The notes below the pieces were generated by a model, which worked only from the letters and a program-made list of their open reading frames with translations, did not search any database and had not been told where the DNA came from. Below, piece after piece: positions 1 through 6,496 of a stretch of DNA of 38,553 nt. A program made the position numbers and the translations under genes. Location: sequence record MG833025.1; one strand, 5' to 3'. The DNA comes from Escherichia phage T7. Positions within the stretch are counted from its first letter, which is position 1. Each line of letters starts with the position of its first letter.

Positions 1-160
1 TCTCACAGTGTACGGACCTAAAGTTCCCCCATAGGGGGTACCTAAAGCCCAGCCAATCACCTAAAGTCAACCTTCGGTTGACCTTGAGGGTTCCCTAAGG
101 GTTGGGGATGACCCTTGGGTTTGTCTTTGGGTGTTACCTTGAGTGTCTCTCTGTGTCCCT
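1..160. repeat. Left direct terminal repeat, identical to 38394-38553
   Basis: The first 160 nt recur exactly at the right end; T7 has a 160-bp terminal redundancy. Confidence 0.95.
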
Positions 161-174
161 ATCTGTTACAGTCT

Positions 175-345
175 CCTAAAGTATCCTCCTAAAGTCACCT
201 CCTAACGTCCATCCTAAAGCCAACACCTAAAGCCTACACCTAAAGACCCATCAAGTCAACGCCTATCTTAAAGTTTAAACATAAAGACCAGACCTAAAGA
301 CCAGACCTAAAGACACTACATAAAGACCAGACCTAAAGACGCCTT
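175..345. repeat. Array of short CCTAAAG-family repeats next to the left terminal repeat
   Basis: Repeated cctaaag/acctaaag units, including the tandem agaccagacctaaag copies, are read directly; T7 has such repeats at its ends. Confidence 0.7.
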
Positions 346-387
346 GTTGTTAGCCATAAAGTGATAACCTTTAATCATTGTCTTTAT

Positions 388-410
388 TAATACAACTCAC
401 TATAAGGAGA
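388..410 (+). promoter_or_regulatory. T7 RNA polymerase promoter phiOL (left replication origin promoter)
   Basis: taatacaactcactataaggaga is a near-consensus 23-mer with +1 near 405. Confidence 0.85.
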
Positions 411-462
411 GACAACTTAAAGAGACTTAAAAGATTAATTTAAAATTTATCAAAAAGAGTAT

Positions 463-498
463 TGACTTAAAGTCTAACCTATAGGATACTTACAGCCA
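463..498 (+). promoter_or_regulatory. Host sigma70 early promoter A1
   Basis: -35 ttgact at 463-468 and -10 gatact at 485-490, at the known T7 A1 position. Confidence 0.85.
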
Positions 499-588
499 TC
501 GAGAGGGACACGGCGAATAGCCATCCCAATCGACACCGGGGTCAACCGGATAAGTAGACAGCCTGATAAGTCGCACGAAAAACAGGTA

Positions 589-626
589 TTGACAACATGA
601 AGTAACATGCAGTAAGATACAAATCG
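589..626 (+). promoter_or_regulatory. Host sigma70 early promoter A2
   Basis: -35 ttgaca at 589-594 and -10 taagat at 613-618. Confidence 0.85.
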
Positions 627-713
627 CTAGGTAACACTAGCAGCGTCAACCGGGCGCACAGTGCCTTCTAGGTGACTTAAGCGCACCACGGCACATAAGG
701 TGAAACAAAACGG

Positions 714-750
714 TTGACAACATGAAGTAAACACGGTACGATGTACCACA
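714..750 (+). promoter_or_regulatory. Host sigma70 early promoter A3
   Basis: -35 ttgaca at 714-719 and -10 tacgat at 737-742. Confidence 0.85.
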
Positions 751-924
751 TGAAACGACAGTGAGTCACCACACTGAAAGGTGATGCGGTCTAACGAAAC
801 CTGACCTAAGACGCTCTTTAACAATCTGGTAAATAGCTCTTGAGTGCATGACTAGCGGATAACTCAAGGGTATCGCAAGGTGCCCTTTATGATATTCACT
901 AATAACTGCACGAGGTAACACAAG

Positions 925-1278
925 ATGGCTATGTCTAACATGACTTACAACAACGTTTTCGACCACGCTTACGAAATGCTGAAAGAAAACATCCGTTATG
1001 ATGACATCCGTGACACTGATGACCTGCACGATGCTATTCACATGGCTGCCGATAATGCAGTTCCGCACTACTACGCTGACATCTTTAGCGTAATGGCAAG
1101 TGAGGGCATTGACCTTGAGTTCGAAGACTCTGGTCTGATGCCTGACACCAAGGACGTAATCCGCATCCTGCAAGCGCGTATCTATGAGCAATTAACGATT
1201 GACCTCTGGGAAGACGCAGAAGACTTGCTCAATGAATACTTGGAGGAAGTCGAGGAGTACGAGGAGGATGAAGAGTAA
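925..1278 (+). CDS. 0.3: Ocr, DNA-mimic inhibitor of type I restriction-modification
   Basis: 117-aa acidic protein [22 protein letters not shown]... matching T7 gp0.3, first gene after A1-A3. Confidence 0.95.
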
Positions 1279-1433
1279 TGTCTACTACCAACGTGCAATA
1301 CGGTCTGACCGCTCAAACTGTACTTTTCTATAGCGACATGGTGCGCTGTGGCTTTAACTGGTCACTCGCAATGGCACAGCTCAAAGAACTGTACGAAAAC
1401 AACAAGGCAATAGCTTTAGAATCTGCTGAGTGA
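1278..1433 (+). CDS. 0.4: Gene 0.4 small protein (51 aa)
   Basis: The ATG overlaps the 0.3 stop (taATG); [51 protein letters not shown]. It is below the ORF-track size cutoff. Confidence 0.8.
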   Translation: MSTTNVQYGLTAQTVLFYSDMVRCGFNWSLAMAQLKELYENNKAIALESAE

Positions 1434-1490
1434 TAGACTCAAGGTCGCTCCTAGCGAGTGGCCTTTTTGATTATCACTTTACTTATGAGG
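1434..1490 (+). promoter_or_regulatory. Probable RNase III processing site (R0.5-like) with the native gene 0.5 RBS
   Basis: actcaaggtcgctcctagcgagtggcc can form a hairpin like T7 RNase III sites; gaggga lies just before the ATG at 1496. Confidence 0.55.
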
Positions 1491-1495
1491 GAGTA

Positions 1496-2491
1496 ATGAG
1501 CATCGCGGCGACCCTGGAGAACGATCTGGCGCGTCTGGAAAACGAAAACGCTCGTCTCGAAAAAGACATCGCGAACCTGGAACGTGACCTGGCGAAACTG
1601 GAGCGTGAAGAAGCGTACTTCGGAGGTTCAGGTGGTAAGAACACTGGTGAAATCTCTGAGAAAGTCAAGCTGGGCACTAAGGCACTGGCTGGTCAATGGC
1701 TGGCTTACGGTGTTACTCGCAGTGTGACTAAGAGTTCAGTCATGACGCTGGCTTACGGGTCCAAAGAGTTCGGCTTCCGTCAACAAGTGCTGGAAGATAC
1801 CATTCAGCCAGCTATTGATTCCGGCAAGGGTCTGATGTTCACTCAGCCGAATCAGGCTGCTGGATACATGGCTAAGCTGATTTGGGAATCTGTGAGCGTG
1901 ACGGTGGTAGCTGCGGTTGAAGCAATGAACTGGCTTAAGTCTGCTGCTAAGCTGCTGGCTGCTGAGGTCAAAGATAAGAAGACTGGAGAGATTCTTCGCA
2001 AGCGTTGCGCTGTGCATTGGGTAACTCCTGATGGTTTCCCTGTGTGGCAGGAATACAAGAAGCCTATTCAGACGCGCTTGAACCTGATGTTCCTCGGTCA
2101 GTTCCGCTTACAGCCTACCATTAACACCAACAAAGATAGCGAGATTGATGCACACAAACAGGAGTCTGGTATCGCTCCTAACTTTGTACACAGCCAAGAC
2201 GGTAGCCACCTTCGTAAGACTGTAGTGTGGGCACACGAGAAGTACGGAATCGAATCTTTTGCACTGATTCACGACTCCTTCGGTACGATTCCGGCTGACG
2301 CTGCGAACCTGTTCAAAGCAGTGCGCGAAACTATGGTTGACACATATGAGTCTTGTGATGTACTGGCTGATTTCTACGACCAGTTCGCTGACCAGTTGCA
2401 CGAGTCTCAATTGGACAAAATGCCAGCACTTCCGGCTAAAGGTAACTTGAACCTCCGTGACATCTTAGAGTCGGACTTCGCGTTCGCGTAA
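1496..2491 (+). CDS. 1: Split T7 RNA polymerase, C-terminal fragment: Met, SYNZIP18-like coiled coil, GGSGG, Lys, polymerase residues 601-883 with apparent R632S
   Basis: Translation SIAATLENDLARLENENARLEKDIANLERDLAKLEREEAYF-GGSGG-KNTGEISEKV... runs to the polymerase C-terminus ...LRDILESDFAFA. It contains motif C (IHDSF, H811/D812) and the specificity-loop region. Confidence 0.93.
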   Translation: MSIAATLENDLARLENENARLEKDIANLERDLAKLEREEAYFGGSGGKNTGEISEKVKLGTKALAGQWLAYGVTRSVTKSSVMTLAYGSKEFGFRQQVLEDTIQPAIDSGKGLMFTQPNQAAGYMAKLIWESVSVTVVAAVEAMNWLKSAAKLLAAEVKDKKTGEILRKRCAVHWVTPDGFPVWQEYKKPIQTRLNLMFLGQFRLQPTINTNKDSEIDAHKQESGIAPNFVHSQDGSHLRKTVVWAHEKYGIESFALIHDSFGTIPADAANLFKAVRETMVDTYESCDVLADFYDQFADQLHESQLDKMPALPAKGNLNLRDILESDFAFA

Positions 2492-2510
2492 TAAAGAGGA
2501 GAAATACTAG
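2491..2510 (+). promoter_or_regulatory. Synthetic intercistronic RBS (aaagaggagaaa plus tactag spacer) after a double stop
   Basis: taataaagaggagaaatactagATG matches a standard synthetic-biology RBS part with an assembly scar; this is not native T7 sequence. Confidence 0.8.
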
Positions 2511-4463
2511 ATGAACACGATTAACATCGCTAAGAACGACTTCTCTGACATCGAACTGGCTGCTATCCCGTTCAACACTCTGGCTGACCATTACGGTGAG
2601 CGTTTAGCTCGCGAACAGTTGGCCCTTGAGCATGAGTCTTACGAGATGGGTGAAGCACGCTTCCGCAAGATGTTTGAGCGTCAACTTAAAGCTGGTGAGG
2701 TTGCGGATAACGCTGCCGCCAAGCCTCTCATCACTACCCTACTCCCTAAGATGATTGCACGCATCAACGACTGGTTTGAGGAAGTGAAAGCTAAGCGCGG
2801 CAAGCGCCCGACAGCCTTCCAGTTCCTGCAAGAAATCAAGCCGGAAGCCGTAGCGTACATCACCATTAAGACCACTCTGGCTTGCCTAACCAGTGCTGAC
2901 AATACAACCGTTCAGGCTGTAGCAAGCGCAATCGGTCGGGCCATTGAGGACGAGGCTCGCTTCGGTCGTATCCGTGACCTTGAAGCTAAGCACTTCAAGA
3001 AAAACGTTGAGGAACAACTCAACAAGCGCGTAGGGCACGTCTACAAGAAAGCATTTATGCAAGTTGTCGAGGCTGACATGCTCTCTAAGGGTCTACTCGG
3101 TGGCGAGGCGTGGTCTTCGTGGCATAAGGAAGACTCTATTCATGTAGGAGTACGCTGCATCGAGATGCTCATTGAGTCAACCGGAATGGTTAGCTTACAC
3201 CGCCAAAATGCTGGCGTAGTAGGTCAAGACTCTGAGACTATCGAACTCGCACCTGAATACGCTGAGGCTATCGCAACCCGTGCAGGTGCGCTGGCTGGCA
3301 TCTCTCCGATGTTCCAACCTTGCGTAGTTCCTCCTAAGCCGTGGACTGGCATTACTGGTGGTGGCTATTGGGCTAACGGTCGTCGTCCTCTGGCGCTGGT
3401 GCGTACTCACAGTAAGAAAGCACTGATGCGCTACGAAGACGTTTACATGCCTGAGGTGTACAAAGCGATTAACATTGCGCAAAACACCGCATGGAAAATC
3501 AACAAGAAAGTCCTAGCGGTCGCCAACGTAATCACCAAGTGGAAGCATTGTCCGGTCGAGGACATCCCTGCGATTGAGCGTGAAGAACTCCCGATGAAAC
3601 CGGAAGACATCGACATGAATCCTGAGGCTCTCACCGCGTGGAAACGTGCTGCCGCTGCTGTGTACCGCAAGGACAAGGCTCGCAAGTCTCGCCGTATCAG
3701 CCTTGAGTTCATGCTTGAGCAAGCCAATAAGTTTGCTAACCATAAGGCCATCTGGTTCCCTTACAACATGGACTGGCGCGGTCGTGTTTACGCTGTGTCA
3801 ATGTTCAACCCGCAAGGTAACGATATGACCAAAGGACTGCTTACGCTGGCGAAAGGTAAACCAATCGGTAAGGAAGGTTACTACTGGCTGAAAATCCACG
3901 GTGCAAACTGTGCGGGTGTCGACAAGGTTCCGTTCCCTGAGCGCATCAAGTTCATTGAGGAAAACCACGAGAACATCATGGCTTGCGCTAAGTCTCCACT
4001 GGAGAACACTTGGTGGGCTGAGCAAGATTCTCCGTTCTGCTTCCTTGCGTTCTGCTTTGAGTACGCTGGGGTACAGCACCACGGCCTGAGCTATAACTGC
4101 TCCCTTCCGCTGGCGTTTGACGGGTCTTGCTCTGGCATCCAGCACTTCTCCGCGATGCTCCGAGATGAGGTAGGTGGTCGCGCGGTTAACTTGCTTCCTA
4201 GTGAAACCGTTCAGGACATCTACGGGATTGTTGCTAAGAAAGTCAACGAGATTCTACAAGCAGACGCAATCAATGGGACCGATAACGAAGTAGTTACCGT
4301 GACCGATGAGAACGGAGGTTCAGGTGGTGGATCCAACGAAAAAGAAGAACTGAAATCCAAAAAAGCGGAACTGCGCAACCGTATCGAACAGCTGAAACAG
4401 AAACGTGAACAACTGAAGCAGAAAATCGCGAACCTGCGTAAAGAAATCGAAGCTTACAAATAA
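2511..4463 (+). CDS. 1: Split T7 RNA polymerase, N-terminal fragment: residues 1-601, GGSGGGS, SYNZIP17-like coiled coil
   Basis: MNTINIAKNDFSDIELAAIPFNTLADHYGERLAREQ... runs to ...NEVVTVTDEN, then GGSGGGS and NEKEELKSKKAELRNRIEQLKQKREQLKQKIANLRKEIEAYK. It contains motif A (D537). Confidence 0.93.
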   Translation: MNTINIAKNDFSDIELAAIPFNTLADHYGERLAREQLALEHESYEMGEARFRKMFERQLKAGEVADNAAAKPLITTLLPKMIARINDWFEEVKAKRGKRPTAFQFLQEIKPEAVAYITIKTTLACLTSADNTTVQAVASAIGRAIEDEARFGRIRDLEAKHFKKNVEEQLNKRVGHVYKKAFMQVVEADMLSKGLLGGEAWSSWHKEDSIHVGVRCIEMLIESTGMVSLHRQNAGVVGQDSETIELAPEYAEAIATRAGALAGISPMFQPCVVPPKPWTGITGGGYWANGRRPLALVRTHSKKALMRYEDVYMPEVYKAINIAQNTAWKINKKVLAVANVITKWKHCPVEDIPAIEREELPMKPEDIDMNPEALTAWKRAAAAVYRKDKARKSRRISLEFMLEQANKFANHKAIWFPYNMDWRGRVYAVSMFNPQGNDMTKGLLTLAKGKPIGKEGYYWLKIHGANCAGVDKVPFPERIKFIEENHENIMACAKSPLENTWWAEQDSPFCFLAFCFEYAGVQHHGLSYNCSLPLAFDGSCSGIQHFSAMLRDEVGGRAVNLLPSETVQDIYGIVAKKVNEILQADAINGTDNEVVTVTDENGGSGGGSNEKEELKSKKAELRNRIEQLKQKREQLKQKIANLRKEIEAYK

Positions 4464-4520
4464 GAGGGACAAACTCAAGGTCATTCGCAAGAGTGGCCTT
4501 TATGATTGACCTTCTTCCGG
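4464..4520 (+). promoter_or_regulatory. RNase III processing site R1.1 region
   Basis: gagggacaaactcaaggtcattcgcaagagtggcctttatgattgacc has a hairpin-capable actcaagg...gagtggcc motif like other T7 RNase III sites. Confidence 0.55.
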
Positions 4521-4521
4521 T

Positions 4522-4544
4522 TAATACGACTCACTATAGGAGAA
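4522..4544 (+). promoter_or_regulatory. T7 promoter phi1.1B
   Basis: taatacgactcactataggagaa, +1 near 4539. Confidence 0.9.
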
Positions 4545-4622
4545 CCTTAAGGTTTAACTTTAAGACCCTTAAGTGTTAATTAGAGATTTAAATTAAAGAA
4601 TTACTAAGAGAGGACTTTAAGT
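4545..4622. other. AT-rich region of the primary origin of replication
   Basis: AT-rich tract ttaaggtttaactttaag...agatttaaattaaagaattac just downstream of phi1.1B, where the T7 primary origin lies. Confidence 0.6.
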
Positions 4623-4751
4623 ATGCGTAACTTCGAAAAGATGACCAAACGTTCTAACCGTAATGCTCGTGACTTCGAGGCAACCAAAGGTCGCAAGTTG
4701 AATAAGACTAAGCGTGACCGCTCTCACAAGCGTAGCTGGGAGGGTCAGTAA
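4623..4751 (+). CDS. 1.1: Gene 1.1 small basic protein (42 aa)
   Basis: MRNFEKMTKRSNRNARDFEATKGRKLNKTKRDRSHKRSWEGQ with RBS gagagga upstream. Confidence 0.8.
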   Translation: MRNFEKMTKRSNRNARDFEATKGRKLNKTKRDRSHKRSWEGQ

Positions 4752-4752
4752 G

Positions 4753-5010
4753 ATGGGACGTTTATATAGTGGTAATCTGGCAGCATTCAAGGCAGCAACA
4801 AACAAGCTGTTCCAGTTAGACTTAGCGGTCATTTATGATGACTGGTATGATGCCTATACAAGAAAAGATTGCATACGGTTACGTATTGAGGACAGGAGTG
4901 GAAACCTGATTGATACTAGCACCTTCTACCACCACGACGAGGACGTTCTGTTCAATATGTGTACTGATTGGTTGAACCATATGTATGACCAGTTGAAGGA
5001 CTGGAAGTAA
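4753..5010 (+). CDS. 1.2: Gene 1.2, inhibitor of host dGTPase
   Basis: MGRLYSGNLAAFKAATNKLFQLDLAVIYDDWYDAY... 85 aa. Confidence 0.85.
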   Translation: MGRLYSGNLAAFKAATNKLFQLDLAVIYDDWYDAYTRKDCIRLRIEDRSGNLIDTSTFYHHDEDVLFNMCTDWLNHMYDQLKDWK

Positions 5011-5030
5011 TACGACTCAGTATAGGGACA
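5008..5030 (+). promoter_or_regulatory. T7 promoter phi1.3
   Basis: taatacgactcagtatagggaca, +1 near 5025. Confidence 0.9.
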
Positions 5031-5090
5031 ATGCTTAAGGTCGCTCTCTAGGAGTGGCCTTAGTCATTTAACCAATAGGAGATAAACATT

Positions 5091-6170
5091 ATGATGAACA
5101 TTAAGACTAACCCGTTTAAAGCCGTGTCTTTCGTAGAGTCTGCCATTAAGAAGGCTCTGGATAACGCTGGGTATCTTATCGCTGAAATCAAGTACGATGG
5201 TGTACGCGGGAACATCTGCGTAGACAATACTGCTAACAGTTACTGGCTCTCTCGTGTATCTAAAACGATTCCGGCACTGGAGCACTTAAACGGGTTTGAT
5301 GTTCGCTGGAAGCGTCTACTGAACGATGACCGTTGCTTCTACAAAGATGGCTTTATGCTTGATGGGGAACTCATGGTCAAGGGCGTAGACTTTAACACAG
5401 GGTCCGGCCTACTGCGTACCAAATGGACTGACACGAAGAACCAAGAGTTCCATGAAGAGTTATTCGTTGAACCAATCCGTAAGAAAGATAAAGTTCCCTT
5501 TAAGCTGCACACTGGACACCTTCACATAAAACTGTACGCTATCCTCCCGCTGCACATCGTGGAGTCTGGAGAAGACTGTGATGTCATGACGTTGCTCATG
5601 CAGGAACACGTTAAGAACATGCTGCCTCTGCTACAGGAATACTTCCCTGAAATCGAATGGCAAGCGGCTGAATCTTACGAGGTCTACGATATGGTAGAAC
5701 TACAGCAACTGTACGAGCAGAAGCGAGCAGAAGGCCATGAGGGTCTCATTGTGAAAGACCCGATGTGTATCTATAAGCGCGGTAAGAAATCTGGCTGGTG
5801 GAAAATGAAACCTGAGAACGAAGCTGACGGTATCATTCAGGGTCTGGTATGGGGTACAAAAGGTCTGGCTAATGAAGGTAAAGTGATTGGTTTTGAGGTG
5901 CTTCTTGAGAGTGGTCGTTTAGTTAACGCCACGAATATCTCTCGCGCCTTAATGGATGAGTTCACTGAGACAGTAAAAGAGGCCACCCTAAGTCAATGGG
6001 GATTCTTTAGCCCATACGGTATTGGCGACAACGATGCTTGTACTATTAACCCTTACGATGGCTGGGCGTGTCAAATTAGCTACATGGAGGAAACACCTGA
6101 TGGCTCTTTGCGGCACCCATCGTTCGTAATGTTCCGTGGCACCGAGGACAACCCTCAAGAGAAAATGTAA
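5091..6170 (+). CDS. 1.3: ATP-dependent DNA ligase
   Basis: 359 aa with the KYDGVRG adenylation motif (lysine nucleotidyltransferase motif I). Confidence 0.95.
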   Translation: MMNIKTNPFKAVSFVESAIKKALDNAGYLIAEIKYDGVRGNICVDNTANSYWLSRVSKTIPALEHLNGFDVRWKRLLNDDRCFYKDGFMLDGELMVKGVDFNTGSGLLRTKWTDTKNQEFHEELFVEPIRKKDKVPFKLHTGHLHIKLYAILPLHIVESGEDCDVMTLLMQEHVKNMLPLLQEYFPEIEWQAAESYEVYDMVELQQLYEQKRAEGHEGLIVKDPMCIYKRGKKSGWWKMKPENEADGIIQGLVWGTKGLANEGKVIGFEVLLESGRLVNATNISRALMDEFTETVKEATLSQWGFFSPYGIGDNDACTINPYDGWACQISYMEETPDGSLRHPSFVMFRGTEDNPQEKM

Positions 6171-6175
6171 TCACA

Positions 6176-6210
6176 CTGGCTCACCTTCGGGTGGGCCTTT
6201 CTGCGTTTAT
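6176..6210 (+). terminator. Early intrinsic terminator TE for host RNA polymerase
   Basis: GC-rich hairpin ggctcacc-ttcg-ggtgggcc followed by tttctgcgttta. Confidence 0.8.
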
Positions 6211-6223
6211 AAGGAGACACTTT

Positions 6224-6379
6224 ATGTTTAAGAAGGTTGGTAAATTCCTTGCGGCTTTGGCAGCTATCCTGACGCTTGCGTATATTCTTGCGGTATACCC
6301 TCAAGTAGCACTAGTAGTAGTTGGCGCTTGTTACTTAGCGGCAGTGTGTGCTTGCGTGTGGAGTATAGTTAACTGGTAA
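6224..6379 (+). CDS. 1.4: Gene 1.4 small hydrophobic protein (51 aa)
   Basis: MFKKVGKFLAALAAILTLAYILAV... with RBS aaggag 8 nt upstream; the ORF-track entry 6191-6379 is an upstream extension. Confidence 0.7.
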   Translation: MFKKVGKFLAALAAILTLAYILAVYPQVALVVVGACYLAAVCACVWSIVNW

Positions 6380-6399
6380 TACGACTCACTAAAGGAGGT
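6377..6399 (+). promoter_or_regulatory. T7 promoter phi1.5
   Basis: taatacgactcactaaaggaggt. Confidence 0.9.
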
Positions 6400-6406
6400 A
6401 CACACC

Positions 6407-6496
6407 ATGATGTACTTAATGCCATTACTCATCGTCATTGTAGGATGCCTTGCGCTCCACTGTAGCGATGATGATATGCCAGATGGTCACGCTTAA
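6407..6496 (+). CDS. 1.5: Gene 1.5 (29 aa)
   Basis: ATG after aggaggt; MMYLMPLLIVIVGCLALHCSDDDMPDGHA. Confidence 0.6.
   Translation: MMYLMPLLIVIVGCLALHCSDDDMPDGHA

Follow-up and report, generated by a model that had tools for sequence, protein, structure and literature searches.

The primary origin of replication of coliphage T7 is described in the literature as the region of two tandem promoters, φ1.1A and φ1.1B, with secondary origins (φOR and φ6.5) that take over if the primary one is deleted. From about T7 5831 to 6006, the wild-type phage carries φ1.1A, the RNase III site R1.1, φ1.1B and an A+T-rich tract. A single T7 promoter together with an A+T-rich tract is reportedly enough for origin function, and either of the two promoters alone is said to suffice. 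According to the T7.1 record of the Endy group, the R1.1 stem-loop begins one base ahead of the φ1.1A start and reaches 51 bases past it, the cut site lying at +40.

T7Δ1 (Δ0.5–1), a deletion strain of the Molineux and Bull laboratories, is without a polymerase gene and needs complementation. Its deletion takes out genes 0.5–1 and reaches partway into φ1.1A (Garry, Ellington, Molineux & Bull 2018, Virus Evolution 4:vey017). A second T7Δ1 paper, with overlapping authors, also states the loss of φ1.1A and attributes no significance to it. The strain is described with 16 promoters and, when wild-type RNA polymerase (RNAP) is supplied in trans, lyses cultures in ~30 min, like wild type; an earlier paper takes the Δ0.5–1 lineage back to Springman et al. 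(2005) and Endy et al. (2000). Into T7Δ1, Garry et al. (2018) recombined a cassette via flanks matching the deletion edges. It encodes the polymerase in two fragments, split at the β-σ breakpoint and both provided with zippers; the σ fragment lies 5' of the α-β fragment, so that a simple deletion cannot restore a single reading frame, and a 19-base spacer with an extra stop stands between them. The recombinant genome, JB 13-78, is GenBank MG833025. This phage recovered from ~15 to ~37 doublings per hour, and no adaptive mutation in Table 1 of that paper lies within 4464–4622. The split T7* 'resource allocator' of Segall-Shapiro et al. (2014) is broken at residue 601, carries SZ17 on the N-terminal and SZ18 on the C-terminal fragment, and has the substitution R632S.

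The window, as we call the whole stretch of 38,553 nucleotides analysed here, was compared by blastn with T7 (V01146, the 1983 reference, to which all T7 coordinates refer). Four collinear blocks were found: window 1–1498 corresponds to T7 1–1498 with one mismatch, 1638–2491 to T7 4969–5822, 2506–4313 to T7 3166–4973, and 4463–38553 to T7 5847–39937 with 34,091/34,091 identities (100%). By alignment to V01146, T7 1499–5846 is swapped for a 2.96-kb cassette; within the replaced block, which ends at 5846 or 5847, lie genes 0.5, 0.6A/B, 0.7 and 1 as well as E. coli promoters B and C and 17 bp of φ1.1A, its upstream part. As in T7Δ1, the wild-type block is missing, φ1.1A is lost and φ1.1B is kept; unlike in T7Δ1, the gap is filled by a split-polymerase cassette. 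The right arm (window 4464–38553; 34,091 bp counting from 4463) has zero differences from the 1983 reference, which suggests that it was copied from V01146 rather than determined independently. The features of the altered region are collected in Table 1.

Table 1. Features at and around the polymerase cassette, in coordinates of the window.
Feature	Position	Strand	Basis and remarks
Left flank: RNase III site R0.5 and gene 0.5 ribosome-binding site	1441..1495	+	Alignment, consensus scan; one difference from T7
First cassette ORF, σ fragment: M-SynZIP18-GGSGG-K-T7 RNAP 601–883 (R632S)	1496..2491	+	Translation mapped to wild-type gp1; Pfam
Spacer, 19 nt, taaagaggagaaatactag; extra stop codon and a synthetic ribosome-binding site, presumably BioBrick-style	2492..2510	+	Sequence
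Second cassette ORF, core (α-β) fragment: T7 RNAP 1–601, GGSGGGS, SynZIP17, TAA 4461–4463	2511..4463	+	Translation; Pfam RPOL_N and RNA_pol
Right junction, cassette / T7 5847/5848	4463..4464	.	blastn and pairwise alignment; T7 5823–5846/7 missing (8-nt spacer and φ1.1A −17 to −1)
RNase III processing stem-loop R1.1 (T7 5847–5899); putative cut site 4504 (T7 5888)	4463..4515	+	T7.1 annotation converted, identity, RNA fold
φ1.1A remnant, +1 to +6 (gaggga), without upstream promoter	4464..4469	+	Annotation, sequence, promoter scan
T7 promoter φ1.1B, −17 to +6, start 4539	4522..4544	+	Annotation, blastn, consensus scan with 0 mismatches
A+T-rich tract of primary origin	4545..4622	+	73% A+T; unchanged from T7 5929–6006
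Gene 1.1, unchanged from T7	4623..4751	+	Annotation, blastn identity

The σ-fragment ORF uses the ribosome-binding site and ATG of gene 0.5. Positions 1–145 of the Pfam RNA_pol profile fall in the second ORF, together with RPOL_N, and positions 147–376 in the first; by this profile one polymerase domain is thus split, its halves being encoded in swapped order. Judged from their translations, the cassette proteins are two fragments of the R632S 'T7*' polymerase described by Segall-Shapiro et al. (2014), the core one being 1:601-SZ17 and the σ one SZ18-601:883. Unlike the original parts, those in the window are carried by a phage genome, the σ fragment leading, and T7 early promoters drive their expression. 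Both proteins were looked up in public assemblies, where neither is on record. N601 is present in both fragments (window 1637–1645 and 4311–4313), the σ fragment having an extra K ahead of it. Relative to T7 the polymerase DNA contains three internal differences (window 1733, 2287 and 3923), comprising CGT to AGT (R632S), a C to G that is silent and removes GGTACC (KpnI), and a T to C, also silent, that gives rise to GTCGAC (SalI); these changes appear consistent with a plasmid-derived T7* gene.

In V01146 the gene 1 stop (5820–5822) is followed by cgccaaatcaatacgactcactata and then by gagggacaaactcaagg, and the starts of φ1.1A and φ1.1B are annotated at 5848 and 5923, respectively. In the window, gagggacaaactcaagg comes directly after the cassette TAA, the sequence around this stop (4461–4463) reading ...gaagcttacaaaTAA followed by gagggacaaactcaaggtc.... 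Missing are the 25 T7 bases after the gene 1 stop, namely cgccaaat and caatacgactcactata, the latter being φ1.1A from −17 to −1. Pairwise alignment revealed that identity begins at the junction a/g, with the T7 sequence picking up again at φ1.1A +1; as the TAA ends in an A that equals T7 5847, the junction has a one-base ambiguity. An initial annotation, made from the sequence alone, had claimed that φ1.1A is missing after this TAA. The sequence, blastn, the promoter scan and pairwise alignment all bear this out, and the alignment to T7 that it had proposed finds a promoter between the gene 1 stop and gagggacaaac in T7 and none in the window.

The window and T7 were scanned for T7 promoters with TAATACGACTCACTATAG at ≤3 mismatches, for which 0.01–0.05 sites are expected by chance. 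Sixteen sites were found in T7 and 15 in the window, and the sole site without a counterpart is φ1.1A (T7 5831–5848), which in T7 matches the consensus with one mismatch. At the corresponding position of the window the conserved −17 to −1 sequence TAATACGACTCACTATA is absent before the +1 G, and there is no match at ≤3 mismatches; the sequence now upstream of +1 (window 4447–4463, tcgaagcttacaaataa) agrees with the promoter consensus at 5/17 positions. A consensus scan of 4440–4520 detected no new σ70-like or T7-like promoter, and the idea that the junction had created a new promoter or terminator was rejected on the same scan. A minus-strand ORF at 4320–4490 (56 aa, TTG start), spanning synthetic zipper DNA and R1.1, was dismissed as a mechanical ORF.

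Downstream of the junction, the window agrees base for base with the wild-type T7 primary origin in R1.1, φ1.1B, the A+T-rich tract and gene 1.1; unlike in the wild type, the first of the tandem promoters is without its −17 to −1 positions. φ1.1B (window 4522–4539) is identical to T7 5906–5923 and a perfect match to the consensus, with +1 at 4539 and +6 at 4544, and the tract at 4545–4622 reproduces T7 5929–6006 exactly, with an A+T content of 73% as against 52% across the whole window. Both had been called intact from the sequence, correctly. A primary origin is expected to have at least one rightward T7 RNAP promoter leading into it, here φ1.1B, with φ1.1A absent, and an A+T-rich tract immediately downstream of the promoters, which is also present. 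With φ1.1A gone, and φ1.1B and the tract intact, it follows directly that φ1.1B is the only T7 promoter remaining at the primary origin. The promoter scan and the alignment agree on this point, which had been anticipated. R1.1 starts exactly at the junction and keeps every base (100% identity to T7). Its RNA is predicted to fold at −21.4 kcal/mol (z = −3.26), a value that describes folding, cleavage being putative; an Rfam search of window 1300–5200 gave no family match, R1.1 included.

The left flank differs from T7 by an A to T change at window 1467, inside R0.5 (cctttatgatt to cctttttgatt), and the hairpin at 1441–1465 with its T-run, directly upstream of the σ-fragment ORF, is now scored as terminator-like by consensus scan. 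This base change was found in no other record of the phage collection, the best identity being 99.1%. At window 1486, the published adaptive T to G converts ttatgaggga to ttaggaggga. In our reading of the sequence, which is absent from Garry et al. (2018), the σ-fragment ORF would thereby gain a stronger Shine-Dalgarno sequence. On either side of the cassette lie homologous RNase III sites with a common 17-mer, gagtggcctttatgatt (window 1456–1472 and 4491–4507), of which the left copy is broken by the change at 1467, and a GAGGGA repeat is found at both edges of the missing T7 block (T7 1487–1492 and 5848–5853). The 17-mer or the GAGGGA repeat could mediate deletions or explain the origin of T7Δ1. 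When a synthetic junction for deletion between the GAGGGA repeats was used as query, no record was found to span it.

Searching phage records with T7 5790–5960 produced 267 matches, 167 of them aligned over at least 80%. The first promoter, followed by the same GAGGGACAAACTCAAGGTC, is present in all five relatives examined, down to ~87% identity (YpP-R, ESh3, ESh6, IME390 and Pila), and in the alignment of these with T7 the window is the only sequence without it. From this comparison, the tandem promoter arrangement is a conserved one in nature, and the window has thus lost it through a laboratory event. At −17 of the first promoter (T7 5831) the five natural relatives have the consensus T where T7 has C. 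Phage IME390 (MH779619.1, 61–270) apparently contains three tandem promoter-plus-R1.1 units after gene 1, T7 having two promoters there. The T7 records with a shortened left end, MZ318361 and MZ375235, were considered as comparable cases and set aside, as both retain gene 1 and φ1.1A.

We are highly confident that the window is the genome, or a GenBank-style reference, of the engineered phage T7 JB 13-78, in which T7 1499–5846/7 is replaced, the right junction is the inherited edge of the T7Δ1 (Δ0.5–1) deletion, lying within the 23-bp φ1.1A promoter, and the primary origin has one promoter. The two share the reverse-order, two-fragment RNAP split at 601, SynZIP 17/18, the 19-base spacer with an extra stop, the absence of genes 0.5–0.7 and a truncated φ1.1A, and all of the design features of JB 13-78 (σ 5' of α-β, spacer and stop, zippers, Δ0.5–0.7) are found in the window. 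From 1074 to 4297, the positions that Garry et al. (2018) list in their Table 1 agree exactly with the window: the stated bases or residues are found at 1486 (T), 1893 (GTG, V133), 1929 (AAC, N145) and 4297 (ACC, T596), and the deletion 1180–1534 would take exactly 99 nt of gene 0.3 and join both reading frames in frame. The four positions beyond 17 kb differ in that they fit only with a shift, 17498, 22666, 33991 and 36465 giving 6.7 A18, 10B E375, 17 D263 and 19 A172 only at +38. By this register, the reference behind the published table must therefore lack 38 bp relative to the window at some point within 4298–17535.

The initial annotation had also ascribed the removal of φ1.1A to the right junction of the cassette. 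The promoter is indeed lost at this junction, but the loss predates the cassette, the T7Δ1 deletion already reaching into φ1.1A according to the source paper. Since the source papers place the truncation in T7Δ1 itself, the loss is inherited from this standard deletion strain and was not made by cassette design. None of the papers examined was found to give exact coordinates for the T7Δ1 deletion, and the wording of Garry et al. (2018), "extends into part of", fits the window without being base-exact. A clean junction exactly at +1, which is also the 5' edge of the annotated R1.1 stem-loop, looks designed, and the builders of the cassette might have taken φ1.1A out deliberately, perhaps so that no T7 promoter would stand right after the polymerase genes. 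We give this the least credence of the alternatives, as Garry et al. (2018) assign the truncation to T7Δ1 and matched the plasmid flanks to the sides of the deletion, and the paper on T7Δ1 without any cassette gives the same loss of φ1.1A. Only slightly less improbable is a junction produced in silico, by a composite reference of V01146 and the designed cassette that does not exactly represent the physical phage. This would account for a right arm of 34,091 bp without any difference from the 1983 reference and for the 38-bp disagreement of the downstream published coordinates; against it, the loss or truncation of φ1.1A in the T7Δ1 lineage is stated in words by two papers, the upstream coordinates of Table 1 fit the window exactly, and Garry et al. 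(2018) mapped reads with breseq and reported no junction discrepancy.

φ1.1A is dead because all of its polymerase-binding and melting positions, −17 to −1, are gone, leaving T7 RNAP without anything to bind or melt. For the rest of the altered region we propose the following working. Early E. coli RNAP transcripts from A1–A3 would run through both polymerase ORFs. R1.1 is intact from the junction onward, so that this polycistronic mRNA should still be processable just after the core-fragment ORF, with the core-fragment message keeping its usual 3' hairpin after the cut at R1.1. From gene 1.1 onward, transcription by T7 RNAP would start from φ1.1B only, and the leading-strand primer of the primary origin would be made by T7 RNAP from φ1.1B alone. 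φ1.1B on its own, with the secondary origins behind it, would probably be sufficient for near-normal replication.

The effect of the φ1.1A loss on replication is probably small. With wild-type RNAP supplied in trans, T7Δ1, which has the same promoter loss, takes no longer than the wild type to lyse cultures. The recovery of JB 13-78 is a weak hint in the same direction, because point mutations could not have rebuilt a 17-bp promoter. Both observations hint at a small cost, and neither isolates the contribution of the promoter. It might be argued instead that the loss matters functionally and that, with a split polymerase of reduced activity, firing from a primary origin with one promoter is late or rare, adding to the strong initial attenuation (~15 vs ~35 doublings per hour). 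The native origin is, after all, described as a φ1.1A and φ1.1B tandem, the first promoter is kept in 5/5 natural relatives examined, in a cell-free system replication was about threefold higher with three φ10 promoters in tandem than with a single one, and Garry et al. (2018) count the making of primers for DNA polymerase as one of the RNAP functions possibly impaired by fragmentation. We consider a functional cost of this kind unlikely, in view of the normal lysis timing of T7Δ1, the return of fitness to ~37 doublings per hour with the junction and origin region unchanged, and the existence of secondary origins in T7. It is similarly doubtful that the two-piece polymerase, weakened as it is, and the primary origin with its single promoter have a joint effect, so that replication would be late or moved to the secondary origins (φOR, φ6.5) and the attenuation would in part be a defect in replication initiation and not only in transcription.

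The loss of φ1.1A is a man-made deletion endpoint, already known from two papers. It brings with it a caveat for the use of these phages: T7Δ1-derived genomes, that of the attenuation model included, are also without φ1.1A and genes 0.5–0.7, and their fitness gap to wild type therefore does not come from the change in the polymerase alone.
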